Positions 2,457 to 36,740 of a stretch of 37,340 bases of DNA are shown in pieces. Origin of the DNA: a virus; the UHGV virus genome UHGV-0142298; one strand, written 5' to 3'. A program made the translations under genes and the position numbers. Each line of letters begins with the position of its first letter. The first letter of the stretch is position 1. Below the pieces are notes generated by a model. It was not told where the DNA came from, ran no database searches, and saw nothing but the letters and a program-made list of their open reading frames with translations.

Positions 2457-3079
2457 TGGTTGACTACTTCAATGTATCCTGTATCAACAATGAAAATGTC
2501 CGTTCTTCGCTCACAGAATTAGTGCGACAGCTTCGCACCAAGAGCTGACATTGTAATATCCGACAGGCTATTGCCTGTCAGTTAACAGTTACGTGTTATA
2601 AAAGGTCAGGCGGGATCCTGACTAGGTGTGTTTAAAGAAGTGCTGGTGGTGAGCGGGTGTTGTGTCCAATTTCCACAGAAAAAAATCTGAGAAACTATAC
2701 CCAATAGTTGTATTGAATCACTGACGAGACAGCCTCATATTTATCAGGACTGGTGTACTTCCAATTCAGGAGGTTGTCGTGCTGGTTCTCAAATGTGCGC
2801 TAGCTATTGCGGCTGTAATGGCAATTTATTGTCTTGCTGTTGTTCTTACGGATCGCCTTTCTGATTGATTTTATATTGGCGAGGTGACGTGAGTTAAGTA
2901 GAATTGCTGCGGGTGCTTGAGGCTATCTGCCTCAGGCATGAACACCAACGGCAGATAGAGAAAAGCCCCAGTTAACATTACGCGTCCTGCAAGACGCTTA
3001 ACATTAATCTGAGGCCAATTTCATGCTAGACACATGTAGGTTAGCCTCTTACGTGCCGGAAGGCAAGGAGAAGCAGGCT

Positions 3080-3235
3080 ATGAAGCAGCAAAAGGCGATG
3101 TTAATCGCCCTGATCGTCATCTGTTTAACCGTCATAGTGACGGCACTGGTAACGAGGAAAGACCTCTGCGAGGTACGAATCCGAACCGGCCAGACGGAGG
3201 TCGCTGTCTTCACAGCTTACGAACCTGAGGAGTAA
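3080..3235 (+). CDS. hokD: Hok/Gef-family membrane toxin (type I toxin)
   Basis: 51-aa product MKQQKAMLIALIVICLTVIVTALVTRKDLCEVRIRTGQTEVAVFTAYEPEE has the Hok signature (TM helix, LTRK.LCE.R, EVAAF..YE); the ORF track extends it upstream to 3023 (mok-like leader frame); intrinsic terminator follows. Confidence 0.8.
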   Translation: MKQQKAMLIALIVICLTVIVTALVTRKDLCEVRIRTGQTEVAVFTAYEPEE

Positions 3236-10634: not shown

Positions 10635-10997
10635 ATTAATATTAAATCGGATTATTTTTAGCGCTGAATGTGAAATTTAAATAAAAAGGACTCTTCCATG
10701 AGTCAAAATCCTTGAAATCTTAAGGGTAAGATAAAAGGTCATTAGACAGAATGACACGTTTTATTAATAAATAAAGCTATTGTTTCATTCGTGTGTTTTT
10801 CTTTACAAAAGTAATCCTTGCTATGGTTGGTTAATCATGCGTTAATGGTGTTCTGGTTTGTTACAAAATTATCTGAAGCAGTCATTGTTATAATTTTATT
10901 ATTTGTACCTCTTGAGATTTCCTTGTTGGTTTTTCTCTCTGATATTTTTTTTCGGACCATTCTGCCCAAGGGCTAACTTCTTCAAAAGGTAATAATG

Positions 10998-11210
10998 ATG
11001 TCTAACAAAATGACTGGTTTAGTGAAATGGTTTAACCCTGAAAAAGGTTTTGGTTTCATCACGCCGAAAGATGGTAGCAAAGATGTGTTTGTCCATTTCT
11101 CAGCTATTCAGAGCAACGATTTCAAAACGTTAACTGAGAATCAGGAAGTCGAATTTGGTATTGAGAACGGACCTAAAGGCCCCGCGGCTGTTCATGTTGT
11201 GGCACTTTGA
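10998..11210 (+). CDS. cspI: Cold-shock protein (CspA family)
   Basis: [23 protein letters not shown]...VFVHFSAIQ contains the RNP1/RNP2 motifs of CspA-family proteins; long AT-rich leader upstream (10640-10995). Confidence 0.8.
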
Positions 11211-11409
11211 GGTAGATAATATTACAAACCATATTCACTTTAGATGCCCGTGTTGCCATGGTTCTCAGTATAGAACATCATCTTTTGATGTTTCTGACAG
11301 GAATCCTTTCGGGGCAAAATGTATCTTTTGTAAATCAATGATGATTACATTTGATAATATTTCACAATACTTAAATGTTAGCCGTCTATCGTTAGATTTA
11401 AGAAAGTGA
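11194..11409 (+). CDS. Possible small zinc-ribbon protein
   Basis: ORF with CPCCHG...CIFC spacing, ending just before a strong terminator; start unclear and overlaps the cspI 3' end. Confidence 0.2.
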
Positions 11410-12058: not shown

Positions 12059-12351
12059 TCTGTTTAGTATTAGCATCAATTTCTCATCAGATGCTATTCA
12101 ACAATACAAATTACCCATAAACCTCGTTTTTACGGGGTTTTGTTATATTTAAACATTACCGAATAGGTATAAATCTCGATTGTCGATGGTATTGGTTGTG
12201 TGACAATACCTAGTCTTTCCGGTATGCCTGATGAGAATACAAACGACAGATTATGTAAGGGAAACGCGCTGAATCTTTAACTCTTTCATGCTGAGTGATT
12301 TGACGTTATATTTTTAGCCGTAAGTGAAGAGCAAACGCATGGAGCGACAAA

Positions 12352-28030: not shown

Positions 28031-28090
28031 TGAAAAACGTTTTATGTGAAACCGCCTCCGGGCGGTTTTGTCGTTTATGGAGCGTTAGGA

Positions 28091-31000
28091 ATGGGTAAAG
28101 GCAGCAGTAAGGGGCATACTCCGCGCGAAGCGAAGGACAACCTGAAGTCCACGCAGTTGCTGAGTGTGATCGATGCCATCAGCGAAGGGCCGGTTGAAGG
28201 TCCGGTAGATGGATTAAAAAGCGTGCTGCTGAACAGTACGCCAGTGCTGGACATTGAGGGGAATACCAACATCTCCGGCGTCACGGTGGTGTTCCGGGCC
28301 GGTGAGCAGGAGCAAACACCGCCGGAGGGATTTGAATCCTCCGGCTCCGAGACGGTGCTGGGTACGGAAGTGAAATACGACACGCCGATCACCCGGACCA
28401 TCACGTCGGCAAACATTGACCGACTGCGTTTTACCTTCGGCGTGCAGGCACTGGTGGAAACCACCTCAAAGGGGGACAGGAATCCGTCGGAAGTCCGCCT
28501 GCTGGTTCAGATACAACGTAACGGTGGCTGGGTGACGGAAAAAGACATCACCATTAAAGGCAAAACCACCTCACAGTATCTGGCCTCGGTGGTGGTGGGT
28601 AACCTGCCGCCGCGCCCGTTCAATATCCGGATGCGCAGGATGACGCCGGACAGCACCACAGACCAACTGCAGAACAAAACGCTCTGGTCGTCATACACCG
28701 AAATCATCGATGTGAAACAGTGCTACCCGAACACGGCACTGGTCGGCGTACAGGTGGACTCGGAGCAGTTCGGCAGCCAGCAGGTGAGCCGTAATTATCA
28801 TCTTCGCGGGCGCATTCTGCAGGTGCCGTCGAACTATAACCCGCAGACGCGGCAATACAGCGGTATCTGGGACGGAACGTTTAAGCCAGCATACAGCAAC
28901 AACATGGCCTGGTGTCTGTGGGATATGCTGACCCATCCGCGCTACGGCATGGGGAAACGTCTTGGTGCGGCAGATGTGGATAAATGGGCGCTGTATGTCA
29001 TCGGCCAGAATTGCGACCAGTCAGTGCCGGACGGCTTTGGCGGCACGGAGCCGCGCATCACCTGTAATGCGTACCTGACCACACAGCGCAAGGCGTGGGA
29101 TGTGCTCAGTGATTTTTGCTCGGCGATGCGCTGTATGCCGGTATGGAACGGGCAGACGCTGACATTCGTGCAGGACCGACCGTCGGATAAGGTGTGGACC
29201 TATAACCGCAGTAATGTGGTGATGCCGGATGATGGCGCGCCGTTCCGCTACAGCTTCAGCGCCCTGAAAGACCGCCATAATGCCGTTGAGGTGAACTGGA
29301 TTGACCCGGATAACGGCTGGGAGACGGCGACAGAGCTTGTGGAGGACACGCAGGCCATTGCCCGTTACGGTCGTAACGTCACGAAGATGGATGCCTTTGG
29401 CTGTACCAGCCGGGGGCAGGCACACCGCGCCGGGCTGTGGCTGATTAAAACGGAGCTGCTGGAAACGCAGACCGTGGACTTCAGCGTGGGTGCAGAAGGG
29501 CTTCGCCATGTACCGGGCGATGTCATTGAAATCTGTGATGATGACTATGCCGGTATCAGCATCGGTGGTCGCGTGCTGGCGGTGAACAGCCAGACCCGGA
29601 CGCTGACGCTCGACCGTGAAATCACGCTGCCATCCTCCGGTACCACGCTGATAAGCCTGGTTGACGGAAGTGGCAATCCGGTCAGCGTGGAGGTTCAGTC
29701 CGTCACCGACGGCGTGAAGGTAAAAGTGAGCCGTGTTCCTGACGGTGTTGCTGAATACAGCGTATGGGGGCTGAAGCTGCCGACGCTGCGCCAGCGTCTG
29801 TTCCGCTGTGTGAGTATCCGTGAGAACGATGACGGTACGTATGCCATCACTGCCGTGCAGCATGTACCGGAGAAAGAAGCCATCGTGGATAACGGGGCGC
29901 ACTTTGACGGTGACCAGAGCGGCACGGTGAATGGTGTCACGCCGCCAGCAGTGCAGCACCTGACCGCAGAAGTCACTGCAGACAGCGGGGAATATCAGGT
30001 GCTGGCGCGATGGGACACACCGAAGGTGGTGAAGGGCGTGAGCTTCCTGCTTCGCCTGACCGTGGCAGCGGATGACGGCAGTGAGCGGCTGGTCAGCACG
30101 GCCCGGACGACGGAAACCACATACCGCTTCAGGCAACTGGCGCTGGGGAACTACAGGCTGACAGTCCGGGCGGTAAATGCGTGGGGGCAGCAGGGCGATC
30201 CGGCATCGGTATCGTTCCGGATTGCCGCACCGGCAGCGCCGTCGCAGATTGAGCTGACACCGGGGTATTTTCAGATAACCGCCACGCCGCATCTTGCGGT
30301 TTATGATCCGACGGTACAGTTTGAGTTCTGGTTCTCGGAAAAACGGATTGCTGATATCAGGCAGGTTGAAACCAGCGCGCGTTATCTTGGTACGGCGCTG
30401 TACTGGATAGCCGCCAGTATCAATATCAAACCGGGTCGTGATTATTACTTTTATATCCGCAGTGTGAACACCGTCGGCAAATCGGCATTCGTGGAGGCTG
30501 TTGGTCGGGCGAGCGATGATGCGGAAGGTTACCTGGATTTTTTCAAAGGCCAGATAACCGAATCCCATCTCGGCAAGGAGCTGCTGGAAAAAGTCGAGCT
30601 GACGGAGGATAACGCCAGCAGACTGGAGGAGTTTTCGAAAGAGTGGAAGGACGCCAGTGATAAGTGGAATGCCATGTGGGGCGTCAAAATTGAGCAGACC
30701 AAAGACGGCAAACATTATGTCGCGGGTATTGGCCTCAGTATGGAGGATACAGAGGAAGGCAAACTGAGTCAGTTTCTGGTTGCCGCCAATCGTATCGCGT
30801 TTATTGACCCGGCAAACGGGAATGAAACGCCGATGTTTGTGGCGCAGGGCAACCAGATATTCATGAACGACGTGTTCCTGAAACGCCTGACGGCCCCCAC
30901 CATTACCAGCGGCGGTAATCCTCCGGCATTTTCCCTGACACCGGATGGGCGGCTGACGGCGAAAAATGCCGATATCAGCGGTAACGTGAATGCGAACTCC

Positions 31001-31486
31001 GGGACGCTCAACAACGTCACGATTAACGAGAACTGTCGGGTTCTGGGAAAACTGTCCGCGAACCAGATTGAAGGCGATCTCGTTAAAACAGTGGGCAAAG
31101 CTTTCCCCCGGGACTCCCGTGCACCGGAGCGGTGGCCATCAGGGACCATTACCGTCAGGGTTTATGACGATCAGCCGTTTGACCGGCAGATTGTTATTCC
31201 GGCGGTGGCATTCAGCGGCGCTAAACATGAGAGAGAGCATACTGATATTTACTCCTCATGCCGTCTGATAGTGCGGAAAAACGGTGCTGAAATTTATAAC
31301 CGTACCGCGCTGGATAATACGCTGATTTACAGTGGCGTTATTGATATGCCTGCCGGTCACGGTCACATGACGCTGGAGTTTTCGGTGTCAGCATGGCTGG
31401 TAAATGACTGGTATCCCACAGCAAGTATCAGCGATTTGCTGGTTGTGGTGATGAAGAAAGCCACCGCAGGCATCAGTATCAGCTGA
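28091..31486 (+). CDS. Host specificity / central tail fibre protein J
   Basis: About 1130 aa, N-terminus [24 protein letters not shown] as lambda J; followed by a terminator. Confidence 0.9.
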
Positions 31487-31553: not shown

Positions 31554-32153
31554 ATGCGTAAAGTTTGTGCAGCCATTTTGTCCGCAGCCATCTGTCTGTC
31601 CGTATCCGGTGCGCCTGCATGGGCATCTGAACATCAGTCCACGCTGAGCGCGGGGTATCTTCATGCCTCGACGAACGTTCCCGGCAGCGATGATCTTAAC
31701 GGGATTAACGTGAAATACCGTTATGAGTTTACGGACACACTGGGGCTGGTGACGTCATTCAGCTATGCAGGAGACAAGAATCGCCAGCTTACCCGTTACA
31801 GCAATACCCGCTGGCATGAAGATTCCGTGCGTAACCGCTGGTTCAGCGTGATGGTGGGGCCGTCTGTGCGCGTGAATGAATGGTTCAGCGCGTATGCGAT
31901 GGCGGGTATGGCTTACAGCCGTGTGTCGACTTTTTCCGGGGATTATCTCCGCGTAACTGACAATAAGGGGAAAACGCACGATGTGCTGACCGGAAGTGAT
32001 GACGGTCGCCACAGCAACACGTCTCTGGCGTGGGGAGCTGGCGTGCAGTTTAACCCGACCGAATCCGTGGCCATTGATATTGCTTATGAAGGCTCCGGCA
32101 GTGGTGACTGGCGCACTGACGGTTTCATCGTGGGTGTCGGTTATAAATTCTGA
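31554..32153 (+). CDS. lom: Lom/Ail-family outer membrane beta-barrel protein
   Basis: 199 aa with signal peptide, alternating-residue beta-strands, C-terminal GYKF; position after J as in lambda. Confidence 0.85.
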
Positions 32154-32217: not shown

Positions 32218-34623
32218 ATGGCAGCAGTAAAAATCTCAGGTGTGCTGAAAGATGGTGCGGGAAAACCAATACAGAACTGCACTATTCAACTGAAGGCAAA
32301 GCGTAACAGCACCACGGTACTGGTGAACACGGTGGCTTCTGAAAATCCGGATGAAGCCGGACGTTACAGCATGGATGTTGAGTATGGCCAGTACAGCGTC
32401 ACCCTGCTGGTTGAAGGTTTTCCGCCTTCACATGCCGGGACCATTACCGTCTATGAAGGCTCCAGACCAGGTACGCTGAATGATTTTCTCGGTGCCATGA
32501 CGGAAGATGATGTCATGCCGGAGGCATTGCGTCGTTTTGAGGCAATGGTGGAAGAAGTGGCACGCAACGCCGAAGCCGCCTCTCAGAGCGCAGCGGCGGC
32601 AAAGAAATCCGAAACTGCAGCGGCATCATCAAAGAACGCGGCGAAAACCTCAGAAACGAATGCAGCTAATAGTGCACAGGCGGCAGCGACCTCAAAGACT
32701 GCATCGGCAAACTCCGCGACAGCAGCCAAAAAATCAGAAACCAACGCGAAAAATAGCGAGACAGCCGCAAAGACGAGCGAAACCAACGCAAAGTCCAGCC
32801 AGACGGCAGCGAAAACCAGCGAAACGAATGCCAAAGCCAGTGAAACTGCGGCAAAAAACAGCCAGGTTGCAGCAGCCCAAAGCGAGAGCGCGGCAGCCGG
32901 TTCTGCGACTTCAGCAGCTGGATCAGCAACTGCTGCGGCTAACAGCCAGAAAGCTGCGAAGACGAGTGAAACTAACGCAAAGTCCAGCCAGACGGCAGCG
33001 AAGACCAGCGAAACGAATGCCAAAGCCAGTGAAACTGCGGCGAAAAGCAGTCAGGATGCAGCGGCCCAAAGCGAGAGTGCCGCAGCCAGTTCTGCAAGCG
33101 CGGCGGCTGCTTCTGCCACTGCATCAGCTAACAGTCAAAAAGCAGCAAAAACCAGTGAAACCAACGCAAAGGCGAGCGAGACTGCGGCGGCGAACTCGGC
33201 GCAAGCATCGGCAGCAAGCCAGACAGCAGCTAAAGCAAGTGAAGACGCAGCCAGAGAGTATGCAAGCCAGGCAGCGGAGCCGTATAAACAAGTTTTGCAG
33301 CCGTTGCCCGATGTGTGGATACCGTTTAATGATTCACTGGATATGATTACGGGCTTTTCGCCATCATATAAAAAAATTGTTATTGGCGACGATGAAATAA
33401 CAATGCCTGGCGACAAGATTGTAAAGTTTAAACGCGCATCGAAAGCAACTTACATTAATAAATCTGGTGTGCTGACAGAGGCTGCCATTGACGAGCCACG
33501 ATTTGAACGTGATGGCCTGCTTATTGAGGGGCAAAGAACTAACCTGCTAATCAATTCAACAAATCCGACTAAATGGAACAAGTCGTCAAATATGATCTTA
33601 AGTGCATCAGGTGTAGATGATTTCGGATTCCAGTACGCAAAATTTACATTAAAACCAGAAATGGTAGGGCAAATTTCAGCGATTAACATAGTAACCGTTT
33701 CCGGCAGTAAAGGTTTTGATGTAACAGGCGGAGAAAAGTATGTAACCATATCATGCAGGGTGCAAAGTGGCACTCCAAATTTAAGATGCCGATTACGATT
33801 TGAAAACTATGATGGTTCTACCTACACATTCTTAGGTGACGCTTACTTAAATACGACAGATTTATCTATTGATAAGACGGGTGGTGCCGCTAATCGCATT
33901 ACTGCAAGGGCTGTTAAAGATGAAGCAAGCAAATGGATCTTTTTTGAGGCGACAATTAAGGCACTTGATACAGAAAATATGATAGGTGGAATGGTTCAGT
34001 ATGCCCCGGCAAAAGGAGTGGGCACTGGCGCGGATGATTATATTTATATTGCGACCCCTCAAGTTGAAGGTGGGGCGTGCGCTTCATCGTTTATTATAAC
34101 AGGCGCATCCCCTGTAACACGCGCCAGCGATATTGTAACGGTCCCCATTTCTCTAAATTGGTGCAATCCCGCTATTAGTTCATTAGCAGAAGTTAATACC
34201 AATTGGGATGAATCGCCAAACAAAGAAGGTAGCGCACGTATTCTTAATATTTCCACTACGGGAGATACAACTGAAATTGCAGATGAAAGTTATATGTATT
34301 TGGGGTATACATCTTTGGGAGCACGCGCAATCATTACAAATGGTAAAGGCACTAAAATAGAATATAAAAGCGTTATAGAACGACCAGAGAGAAAAAGTAT
34401 TATCGGCTTTAGATTCACAGAAAGTCGAGAATTGTGTGTTGTGGTTAACGGTAATATTGGTGCTAAGGTAGTTTCTCCTTATAAAAAACACAAATATACA
34501 GGAGGCTTCATTAATATTGGTGGTCAATCATCATCCGGCAACCGTCACCTATTTGGACACGTTCGAAATCTGCGTATTTGGCACAAGGCATTGACTGATG
34601 CTCAGATGGGGGAGTCAATCTAA
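32218..34623 (+). CDS. stf: Side tail fibre protein (Stf-like) with internal repeats and a divergent AT-rich C-terminal receptor-binding region
   Basis: N-terminus MAAVKISGVLKDGAGKPIQNCTIQLKAKRNSTT matches lambda Stf; middle part is imperfect AAKTSETNAKASETAAK repeats; base composition drops sharply from about 33300. Confidence 0.8.
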   Translation: MAAVKISGVLKDGAGKPIQNCTIQLKAKRNSTTVLVNTVASENPDEAGRYSMDVEYGQYSVTLLVEGFPPSHAGTITVYEGSRPGTLNDFLGAMTEDDVMPEALRRFEAMVEEVARNAEAASQSAAAAKKSETAAASSKNAAKTSETNAANSAQAAATSKTASANSATAAKKSETNAKNSETAAKTSETNAKSSQTAAKTSETNAKASETAAKNSQVAAAQSESAAAGSATSAAGSATAAANSQKAAKTSETNAKSSQTAAKTSETNAKASETAAKSSQDAAAQSESAAASSASAAAASATASANSQKAAKTSETNAKASETAAANSAQASAASQTAAKASEDAAREYASQAAEPYKQVLQPLPDVWIPFNDSLDMITGFSPSYKKIVIGDDEITMPGDKIVKFKRASKATYINKSGVLTEAAIDEPRFERDGLLIEGQRTNLLINSTNPTKWNKSSNMILSASGVDDFGFQYAKFTLKPEMVGQISAINIVTVSGSKGFDVTGGEKYVTISCRVQSGTPNLRCRLRFENYDGSTYTFLGDAYLNTTDLSIDKTGGAANRITARAVKDEASKWIFFEATIKALDTENMIGGMVQYAPAKGVGTGADDYIYIATPQVEGGACASSFIITGASPVTRASDIVTVPISLNWCNPAISSLAEVNTNWDESPNKEGSARILNISTTGDTTEIADESYMYLGYTSLGARAIITNGKGTKIEYKSVIERPERKSIIGFRFTESRELCVVVNGNIGAKVVSPYKKHKYTGGFINIGGQSSSGNRHLFGHVRNLRIWHKALTDAQMGESI
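32560..33250 (+). repeat. Imperfect tandem and long direct repeats inside stf
   Basis: About 150-bp near-identical direct repeats (roughly 32770-32920 and 32950-33100) built from shorter repeat units. Confidence 0.7.
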
Positions 34624-34904
34624 TGAAAGATTTAACACTCAAATTTGCCGACAGGGCCGACTTTTCGGCCTTTATGGGAAGTATTGGCTATTATAATGAC
34701 GAGTCGATGCAGGATGATATTCTGATTGATGTGATAGGTAACGTGTACAAAGAAACCGGAGAGCTGACTGAAGATGGCGAACCGGTATGTGTTAAGGAAG
34801 ATGGATATTTTGTAAACGTGCGCATCATTAAGGATACGCAAATATCGTCATTATTCGATGAATACGCGGTTGCTGTTGAGCATCAACTTCGTGGCTGGAT
34901 GTGA
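34623..34904 (+). CDS. Hypothetical small protein coupled to stf (possible fibre chaperone)
   Basis: 93-aa ORF whose ATG overlaps the stf stop (TAATG); acidic; does not resemble lambda Tfa. Confidence 0.4.
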   Translation: MKDLTLKFADRADFSAFMGSIGYYNDESMQDDILIDVIGNVYKETGELTEDGEPVCVKEDGYFVNVRIIKDTQISSLFDEYAVAVEHQLRGWM

Positions 34905-34913
34905 GGTAGAGAA

Positions 34914-35618
34914 ATGGCTACATCAACAGTAATTCCGGGAGACATCACCACGCTGAAGGGAGATGTTAGTAAAGCAAAGGAAGATATTTCCTCTATTAAC
35001 GGAAAAGTATCAACGCTTCAGACTGATATGGCCAGTGCAAAGCAGGATATCAGCACCAGATACACAAAAACTGAAGTTGATAATAAGCTGAAAAACAAAG
35101 TGGAAGTGAACGATCTGGAAAGTGGTCGTTATGGCGGAGATTTTTACCCGCTGACTGGCCGTGAAGCGTTTTATTTATGGGGATTGGGCACAACTACAGC
35201 GGCGGCAAATCTTTATCTTAATCCTGACCCTGCAATTTCGTCTGTGCTGCGGTCAACATCGTCTATCCGCTATAAACATTCAGTAGAGACGATAGATTCA
35301 GAGCACGCCGATCTCATTTTCAGGATGCGCCCTGTGTGGTACAGGTCGCAATGCGAAAATGACAGGCGTGACTGGGGATTCTATGGATTGATTGCCGAGG
35401 AAGTTGGAGAAATTGCCCCTCAGTTTGTTCACTGGCGACCAGCCAACGAAGATGATGCACCGGAAACCATTTCCAGCAATGGCCTTGTTGCCGAAGGTGT
35501 AATGTACGAACGTCTGGTTGTTCCACTGATTCACCATATCCAGAAGCTGACTGAAAGAGTTGATGAACTTGAGTCAGAATTAAAGTTGTTATCCGTTTCC
35601 CGAAGCGATATCGGATAA
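34914..35618 (+). CDS. Fibre-like protein with C-terminal intramolecular chaperone domain (peptidase S74-like)
   Basis: N-terminal coiled-coil; C-terminal segment SSIRYKHSV...WGFYGLIAEEVGEIAPQFV...YERLVVPLIHHIQKLTERVDELESELKLL fits the S-D-x-R-x-K ... IAQEV ... LLIEAIKEL pattern of auto-cleaving fibre chaperone domains. Confidence 0.55.
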   Translation: MATSTVIPGDITTLKGDVSKAKEDISSINGKVSTLQTDMASAKQDISTRYTKTEVDNKLKNKVEVNDLESGRYGGDFYPLTGREAFYLWGLGTTTAAANLYLNPDPAISSVLRSTSSIRYKHSVETIDSEHADLIFRMRPVWYRSQCENDRRDWGFYGLIAEEVGEIAPQFVHWRPANEDDAPETISSNGLVAEGVMYERLVVPLIHHIQKLTERVDELESELKLLSVSRSDIG

Positions 35619-35922: not shown

Positions 35923-36149
35923 AAAAAGGTGAGCTGTATATGCAACGGAGGAAGAAACCTCGTTGCGGGAAGCCTTGAAGAAGTATCGGGTGTTGCTGAA
36001 CCGTGTTGATACGTCAACTGCACAGGATATTGAATGGCCAGCACTGCCGTAGGGTAAAACATATAAATTCTATAATTAGATGTATCTTTCCATTTACGGC
36101 AAGGAAGGGGGCTTGGAAGACGTAAGGCATCTCACACCGAGATTATTTT

Positions 36150-36740
36150 TTATATGTCAGGTGTCTGAAGTTTTGCTTTGGCTCTTAAAATGGTTTGCCG
36201 CGAGGTTTTGAATTCCCGGGCAATGGCACTTATACTTACACCTGACTTAATCCGTTCGAATACCACCTGTTTCTGTTCTTCATTTAACACAGGTGGTCGA
36301 CCAAAACGTTTCCCTGCGCCCCGGGCTCTTACTATCCCGGAATGAGTGCGTTCAAGTAAAAGGTCTCGTTCAAATTCAGCGACTGCTGAAATTACTTGCA
36401 TCATCATTTTTCCTGTTGGACTGGTCAGGTCAATGCCCCCCAATGCTAAGCAATGCACTCTGATACCTGTTTCGGTCAGTTGTTCCACTGTTTTCCTGAT
36501 ATCCATTGCATTACAACCAAGGCGATCCAGTTTTGTCACAATCAATTGATCACCACATTTCAGGCGAGCAAGCAACCGGTTAAAACCAGGACGCTCACTG
36601 GTTGCTGCTGAGCCGCTAATGTGTTCTTCGATTATTTGCTGAGGTTTGATTTTAAAACCTGCACTTTCGATTTCCCGGCGTTGATTTTCGGTGGTCTGAT
36701 CCAGCGTTGATATCCGACAGTAAGCAAAAATTCGAGACAT
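36150..36740 (-). CDS. Serine recombinase (DNA invertase/resolvase family)
   Basis: N-terminal catalytic motif ([12 protein letters not shown]), central conserved block, C-terminal HTH; 196 aa, typical invertase size. Confidence 0.8.

Follow-up and report, generated by a model that had tools for sequence, protein, structure and literature searches.

The repeat-rich centre of the side tail fibre gene (stf) in the window, that is, in the whole stretch of 37,340 nucleotides that was analysed, very probably encodes the proximal coiled-coil rod of a lambda-type Stf protein, with repeats that allow an occasional in-frame change of rod length. The rod is a structural repeat that recombines now and then; measured against sequence divergence these events are rare, and the region does not qualify as hypervariable.

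The window is a lambdoid prophage of Escherichia coli. In strain Ch1 the stf locus is identical to that of the window and adjoins pinQ, ydfK, ynfT and a truncated ydfJ, which is the attachment region of the Qin prophage; several complete E. coli genomes contain the exact stf gene, 124 genomes contain 80% or more of it, and the number of stf-related places per E. coli genome has a median of 2 and reaches 13. The genes and domains concerned are the following.

28046-31486: J-like open reading frame, upstream of lom
31554-32153: Ail/Lom (lom), PF06316 (E 2.7e-120), between J and stf
32218-34623, plus strand: stf, side tail fibre gene, 801 amino acids from the ATG at 32218, stop at 34621-34623
32224-32502, plus strand: N-terminal collar domain, amino acids 3-95, the tail anchor of the fibre
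32536-33270, plus strand: heptad-repeat rod, a presumed trimeric alpha-helical coiled coil, amino acids ~107-351, 34-35 unbroken heptads

In the program-made list of open reading frames stf starts at an upstream GTG (32212); the ATG at 32218 is used for numbering because the N-terminus there (MAAVKISGVLKDG...) matches that of lambda Stf. The prophage tail fibre N-terminal domain (Pfam PF08400) covers amino acids 5-134 of the protein (E 5.5e-67), a PHROG search found phrog_1419 to cover the whole of Stf, end to end, and the gene order J-lom-stf is also that of the PGAP annotation of the identical locus. The collar shares ~88% identity with its counterpart in Ur-lambda Stf, chain 9e7m_Ta (phmmer E 2.3e-49), which is the top Foldseek match as well. 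Ur-lambda gpStf has PF08400 and the J-lom-stf order in common with the window, and its long Ala/Ser/Thr/Lys/Glu-rich heptad region starts at the matching position. To judge from its sequence, then, stf is a lambda-type side tail fibre gene: the N-terminal domain, the position of the gene and a heptad rod at the matching place all agree. By homology to Ur-lambda (PMC12617516), Stf would be assembled as a trimer on the virion.

The rod follows the heptad pattern A-[K/A]-x-S-[E/A/Q]-T-[A/N], and its phase is nowhere interrupted. Of 34 heptads, 30 have Ala at position 1, 32 have Ser at position 4 and 25 have Ala at position 7. Ala at position 1 and Ser at position 4, the most conserved residues, probably occupy the core, and such an Ala/Ser core is unusual beside canonical hydrophobic coiled coils. 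In an AF2 monomer model amino acids 100-351 are helical, with pLDDT mostly below 50 and a chain that folds back on itself. Low confidence of this kind is as expected of a single chain taken from a trimeric rod; because of it, a Foldseek search was uninformative for this segment. In lambda gpStf, which consists of a collar, a proximal trimeric coiled coil, a hinge and a distal domain, the coiled coil is assigned to residues 102-393 (PMC12617516; cryo-EM structure PDB 9e7m), and it is this assignment, together with the heptads, the collar homology to Ur-lambda and the helical AF2 model, that leads us to interpret the repeats as encoding the proximal coiled-coil rod. With ~245 amino acids in the window Stf as against 292 in lambda, and including a recent-looking tandem duplication of 63 amino acids, the rod would span ~36 nm if each residue adds 0.148 nm, and a unit of 9 heptads would account for ~9.3 nm. 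It would link the N-terminal collar to the lectin-like distal domains. Trimeric heptad-based shafts which set the distance from the virion to the receptor-binding tip are familiar from the proximal rod of T7 gp17 and the tail needle of P22, gp26.

The DNA encoding the rod is repetitive at two scales. Tandem Repeats Finder reports an array of period 189 at 32755-33189, with 2.3 copies, 83% matches, 0 indels and nested periods of 21 and 42 nt; a separate repeat search returned a 189-nt pair at 32713-32901 and 32902-33090 (83% identity).

32755-32943, plus strand: repeat unit 1, 189 nt, 63 amino acids, 9 heptads
32944-33132, plus strand: repeat unit 2, 189 nt
33133-33189, plus strand: partial third copy, the first 57 nt of the unit, in line with the 2.3 copies above and with the repeat-family D1 member at 33130-33189 (77% identity)
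32815-32852, plus strand: longest exact run shared by the units, 38 nt, recurring at 33004-33041

The first-pass annotation had described the centre of stf (32560-33250) as built from imperfect repeat units, two segments of which, roughly 150 bp long, would be about 90% identical. Both statements are borne out: its coordinates cover the repeat-bearing heptad region (~32536-33270), and an ungapped diagonal scan of the whole of stf gave as best 150-nt pair 32755-32904 and 32944-33093, at an offset of 189 and 90.0% identity, far above the maximum of 49.3% in codon-shuffled stf controls (n=30). The remaining strong diagonals of self-similarity in stf all lie at multiples of 21 nt. Units 1 and 2 are 85.2% identical over 189 nt, with 90.7% over the first 118 nt and 76.1% over the last 71 nt. 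Stf contains exactly two copies of the peptide AAKTSETNAKASETAAK, at amino acids 197-213 and 260-276. The minimum for efficient RecA-dependent recombination is roughly 25 bp, which the 38-nt run exceeds, and this run is a likely seed of recombination. It falls within 32784-32862, the crossover interval deduced for four alleles with one unit only, and mismatch maps narrow the crossover in two loci, L092 and L083, to ~32776-32784, just upstream of the run.

Alleles that differ in rod length are indeed found among relatives. The Stf of phage IdasGreatGrand is ~98% identical to that of the window over the N-terminal half and misses exactly 63 amino acids, or one unit. When the distance between two conserved anchors was taken in the best 120 protein clusters, the spacing of the window (248 amino acids) was found in 47 and a spacing of 185 (-63) in 50; a spacing of -13, which represents -7 plus a divergent junction, occurs in 11 clusters, that of -14 in two, at different places, and those of -4, -7, -12, -28, -30, -41, -49, -68 and -77 in one cluster each. 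In one cluster, P0108, the deletion of 63 amino acids has different endpoints. At the level of DNA the allele of -189 nt (63 amino acids, 9 heptads) is present at five loci (L001, L083, L089, L091, L092), its carriers being IdasGreatGrand, an IMG/VR contig (L083) and the complete E. coli genomes CB209, AVS0655 and MSB1_4I (L092); CB209 has both a two-unit and a one-unit allele. Other alleles are -147 nt (L084), -123 nt (L086) and -21 nt (L062), and -84 nt occurs in EFF60 (L090), where stf is otherwise a decayed pseudogene. Comparing the length of stf among related prophages thus yields in-frame alleles of -189 (five loci), -147, -123 and -21 nt whose endpoints lie within the repeats, as the first-pass annotation had led one to expect. 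Seven of the 12 indel classes are multiples of 7 amino acids (binomial P = 5e-4 against 1/7 per class), a bias that fits the 21-nt periodicity of the DNA, selection for keeping the register, or a combination of the two. Register is lost in some classes, among them -4, -12, -30 and -41 amino acids; mostly represented by partial proteins on short draft contigs, these may include assembly errors. A literature search found no paper on length polymorphism of the Stf rod.

The 21-nt and 189-nt periods of the DNA would allow units to pair out of register, either by homologous recombination or by slippage, and either inside a single phage or between lambdoid prophages of the same host cell; the recombinants would stay in frame and mostly in heptad register, with shorter or longer rods. 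We infer such a recombination pathway, along with the physical change in rod length; each event may have been a deletion or else a duplication or insertion. At the diagnostic sites every length variant displays a single left-to-right switch of register, with no reversals in L001, L083, L089, L092, L084 and L090, one each in L091 and L086, and five in L062. The crossover interval is 32784-32862 in four of the -189 loci and 32862-32889 in IdasGreatGrand, which a single diagnostic site sets apart from the other four, so that this is not a firm sign of a separate event; the intervals in further variants are 33024-33043, 32680-32690, 32868-32871 and 32856-32866.

L092 and L083 are the best resolved. 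Relative to the window both are 95.1% identical left of the junction and 99.5% identical right of it, with 0 mismatches over 32974-34076, and the step in divergence falls at 32776-32784 in the left register, which is 32965-32973 in the right register. The genes downstream of stf in MSB1_4I (L092) and in L083 are those of the window, for MSB1_4I down to identical PGAP protein accessions; from 32941 on, over what remains of stf and over the genes that follow it, the alleles of the window and of MSB1_4I are 99.5% identical, and their rods differ by 63 amino acids. Because identity steps from 95.1% to 99.5% at the repeat junction, the one-unit alleles of L092 and L083 are, on the evidence of this step, joins of two prophage lineages inside the repeat. 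They may have originated either by out-of-register exchange or from a pre-existing one-unit allele which paired with unit 2 of a window-like allele. An exchange between prophages is plausible, since there are several stf-related places per genome and CB209 carries two alleles. Towards the 3' end of the unit, where units 1 and 2 diverge, the sequence of the one-unit alleles agrees with unit 2 at all of ~20 diagnostic sites, which argues against a simple ancestral single unit; P0108 retains the unit-1 version, and for this reason the two-unit form could also be the product of an unequal exchange that involved a pair of one-unit alleles. Of the proposal that the repeats are substrates for recombination or slippage which change the length of the shaft in frame, the part concerning in-frame, repeat-bounded alleles therefore holds; what has to be modified is their frequency, for they are rare, and their source, as the best-resolved one-unit alleles look like inter-lineage exchange rather than slippage within one molecule.

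How rare such changes are is seen from the distance between anchors in nucleotides, which is 881 nt in 79 of 81 related loci (IMG/VR) at a nucleotide diversity of ~4%, and 877-881 nt in all 27 full-coverage rows from an even sample of E. coli genomes. Units 1 and 2 of one genome are 80-88% identical, far less than orthologous units (96-97%), and hence there is no homogenisation of the units. At 18 of the sites where units 1 and 2 differ, the base of the other unit occurs as a polymorphism, a pattern only weakly suggestive of occasional gene conversion, as at two-fold sites the sole transition is to the other unit's base. Purifying selection is seen in the stf frame alone: of the 160 variable sites, 95 lie at codon position 3, and stops are found in 0 of 66 homologues.

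These figures could also be taken to mean that the duplication is an old neutral relic and that the length alleles represent a small number of ancient lineages, which owe their spread to ordinary horizontal exchange and not to recombination at the repeats. Units diverged to 85% when orthologues are 96-97% identical, a length kept in 79 of 81 loci and the crossover interval common to four of the five -189 alleles, for which a single event could suffice, all speak in favour of such a relic. Nevertheless we consider it unlikely: there are at least six different junctions, all of them repeat-bounded and in frame, P0108 supplies a second allele of -63 amino acids with other endpoints, and the divergence step in L092 and L083 falls exactly at the repeat junction; the 18 conversion-like sites point the same way, if weakly. 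The preferred reading, that of a rod whose repeats recombine occasionally, accommodates these junctions.

The gene is a mosaic beyond the rod as well. The distal part of Stf starts after ~amino acid 430 and comprises a GTA_spike_fiber domain and lectin, CBM40 or LamG-like jelly rolls, unlike lambda Stf, in which the tip is T4 gp37-like and binds OmpC; downstream, where lambda has tfa, the window has an open reading frame of 93 amino acids and a short S74-chaperone protein.

33507-33543, plus strand: main mosaic junction, the site of exchange of distal receptor-binding modules, defined by homology endpoints in relatives

In 17 loci homology to the window stops at 33507, and in another 42 it extends to 33543 (59 in total); the latter site (gene position 1332) is also a homology endpoint in phage matches, and further discrete breakpoints lie inside the rod at 32687, 32702, ~32796, 32844 and 33108. 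One rod type is joined to many distal modules, and the window-type distal module is found with both rod lengths, so rod length and tip assort independently. Mosaic evolution of tail fibres via recombination at shared motifs is well documented for lambda, P2, T4 and Mu, and the combination of a conserved N-terminal anchor with exchangeable distal modules recurs in the stf of the window. The difference from known tail-fibre mosaics is that some exchanges in stf appear to be out of register by one repeat unit, which would alter the length of the rod besides, or instead of, specificity.

One might go further and regard rod length as an adaptive, tunable trait, with the 9-heptad cassette as a spacer that is gained or lost by out-of-register recombination between co-resident prophages. 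We judge such a scheme improbable. If it were true, the reach of the fibre would be matched to the thickness of the O-antigen or capsule without regard to the receptor-binding tip; a natural pair for testing it are the alleles of the window and of L092.

Far less probable still is a programmed hypervariable or contingency locus, at which slippage, or else PinQ, the invertase encoded nearby, would often switch the length or specificity of the fibre and so serve a host-range strategy. Invertases are well known to act on tail-fibre genes, a serine invertase gene (pinQ-type recombinase, 36150-36740) lies 1.5 kb downstream of stf, and length alleles do exist. However, the array consists of 2.3 copies of a long unit at 85% identity and is not a short homogeneous tract, and with a length constant in 79 of 81 loci a VNTR subject to high-frequency slippage was rejected. 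An invertase-switched fibre of the Mu Gin, P1 Cin or e14 Pin type was rejected too: a repeat search found no inverted repeats bracketing the repeat region or the fibre genes, there is no hix-like AAACCNNGGTTT core near stf (a single match, at chance level, lies at 12119), and according to PGAP the sole remnant of tfa is a truncated fragment beside pinQ. No tRNA is present, nor was a relevant Rfam family found near stf.

The heptad region also contains a long open reading frame in another frame, which the first-pass annotation had attributed to the repeats.

32507-33346, plus strand: off-frame open reading frame of 279 amino acids, ATG-initiated, a compositional artefact

It is a non-coding artefact, and in this the earlier statement was right; its cause is a different one. 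Codon shuffles that destroy the repeats keep the off-frame open for 273 +/- 10 codons, as against 281 observed, and it is for this reason that the frame is ascribed to the T-poor composition of Ala, Ser, Thr, Lys and Glu codons (the T content of the repeat region is 8.6%) and not to the repeats; the minus-strand open reading frames 32583-33023 and 33135-33416 have a compositional origin likewise. That it might be a real overlapping gene for a basic, Arg/Lys/Gln-rich protein, as its 279 ATG-initiated codons and the 'hypothetical protein' genes sometimes called by PGAP in this region of other genomes could suggest, was rejected and deserves practically no credence, there being neither a Pfam nor a PHROG match, nor conservation, nor purifying selection in its own frame: among 66 distinct homologues the ratio of synonymous to non-synonymous changes is 162:1204 in this frame, with variation falling on its second codon positions, versus 1029:339 in the stf frame, an internal stop is present in 24 of the 66 and the ATG is lost in 6, and shuffled codons give an equally long open frame.

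Repeated coiled-coil rods and mosaic recombination of tail fibres are established features of lambdoid phages and already known; the in-frame alleles of rod length catalogued here illustrate them neatly but are no discovery, and carry little weight for basic biology. Their uses are mainly practical. The T-poor heptad region gives rise to spurious open reading frames in several frames, which are sometimes called by annotation pipelines and are best ignored, and the repeats may hamper short-read assembly; in public databases many homologous proteins are partial and lie on short contigs. Engineered lambda Stf chimeras exist (PMC11338833), and the natural junctions mark in-frame joins that are tolerated and could serve in engineering chimeric Stf proteins. 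One-unit and two-unit alleles on near-identical backgrounds, finally, are a ready pair with which the length of the side fibre can be related to adsorption.

The side tail fibre gene stf carries a sharp mosaic junction at window 33507-33543; among relatives with a common N-terminal half, homology ends at 33507 (17 loci) or at 33543 (42 loci), shortly before the part of the gene that encodes the GTA_spike_fiber domain (aa 435-636). The segment just past the junction (gene positions 1053-1928) is common to T1-like, siphovirus-sized phages (~50 kb) and T5-like phages (~108 kb).

In strain Ch1, at L002 6007-8010 (corresponding to window 32218-34221), PGAP labels the gene a pseudogene with a "missing C-terminus", while the reading frame is intact and identical to that of the window, and in strain EFF60, at L090 3104-3460, a "hypothetical protein" is called on the minus strand within the T-poor, heptad-encoding repeat region. 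Both the label and the minus-strand reading frame look like annotation artefacts of this low-complexity segment.

Two reading frames and a recombinase gene with its neighbour lie downstream of stf:
34621-34904 (ATG at 34623), 93-aa ORF of phrog_1361
34914-35618, 234-aa ORF with a short N-terminal coiled-coil and a Peptidase_S74 domain
~35940-36050, truncated tail fibre assembly gene (PGAP call), adjoining the invertase
36150-36740, minus strand, PinQ-type serine DNA invertase

The start codon of the 93-aa ORF is overlapped by the TAA stop codon of stf (34621-34623), and the ORF is conserved after stf in all related loci examined; it has no Pfam or NCBIfam match and may be a fibre assembly factor, translationally coupled to stf. 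In the 234-aa ORF the intramolecular chaperone domain (PF13884) occupies aa 116-172, and the ORF's match to the long-fibre family phrog_3299 is confined to the final ~240 positions of that family; the counterpart in E. coli strain CB209 has 346 aa. The product is a self-cleaving fibre protein that is unusually short, or else what remains of such a protein. Neither inverted crossover sites nor alternative fibre segments were found, so that the invertase looks like an orphan whose invertible fibre cassette has been lost.

Two Rfam matches fall elsewhere in the prophage:
2911-3085, plus strand, sok antitoxin RNA (RF01794, 115.8 bits)
10840-11256, plus strand, cspA thermoregulator leader (RF01766, 112.8 bits)

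The former match implies that the early region of the prophage carries a putative toxin-antitoxin module of the hok/sok type; the latter, in a stretch devoid of long ORFs, is probably the 5′-nontranslated region of a prophage cold-shock protein gene, like that of Qin.

While lambda Stf ends in an OmpC-binding tip, the predicted structure of the distal half of the window protein (window 33520-34620) shows jelly rolls similar to lectins of the CBM40, galectin and LamG types, with pLDDT values of 80-93 over aa ~450-620. These modelled lectin-like folds suggest that its receptor is a glycan.
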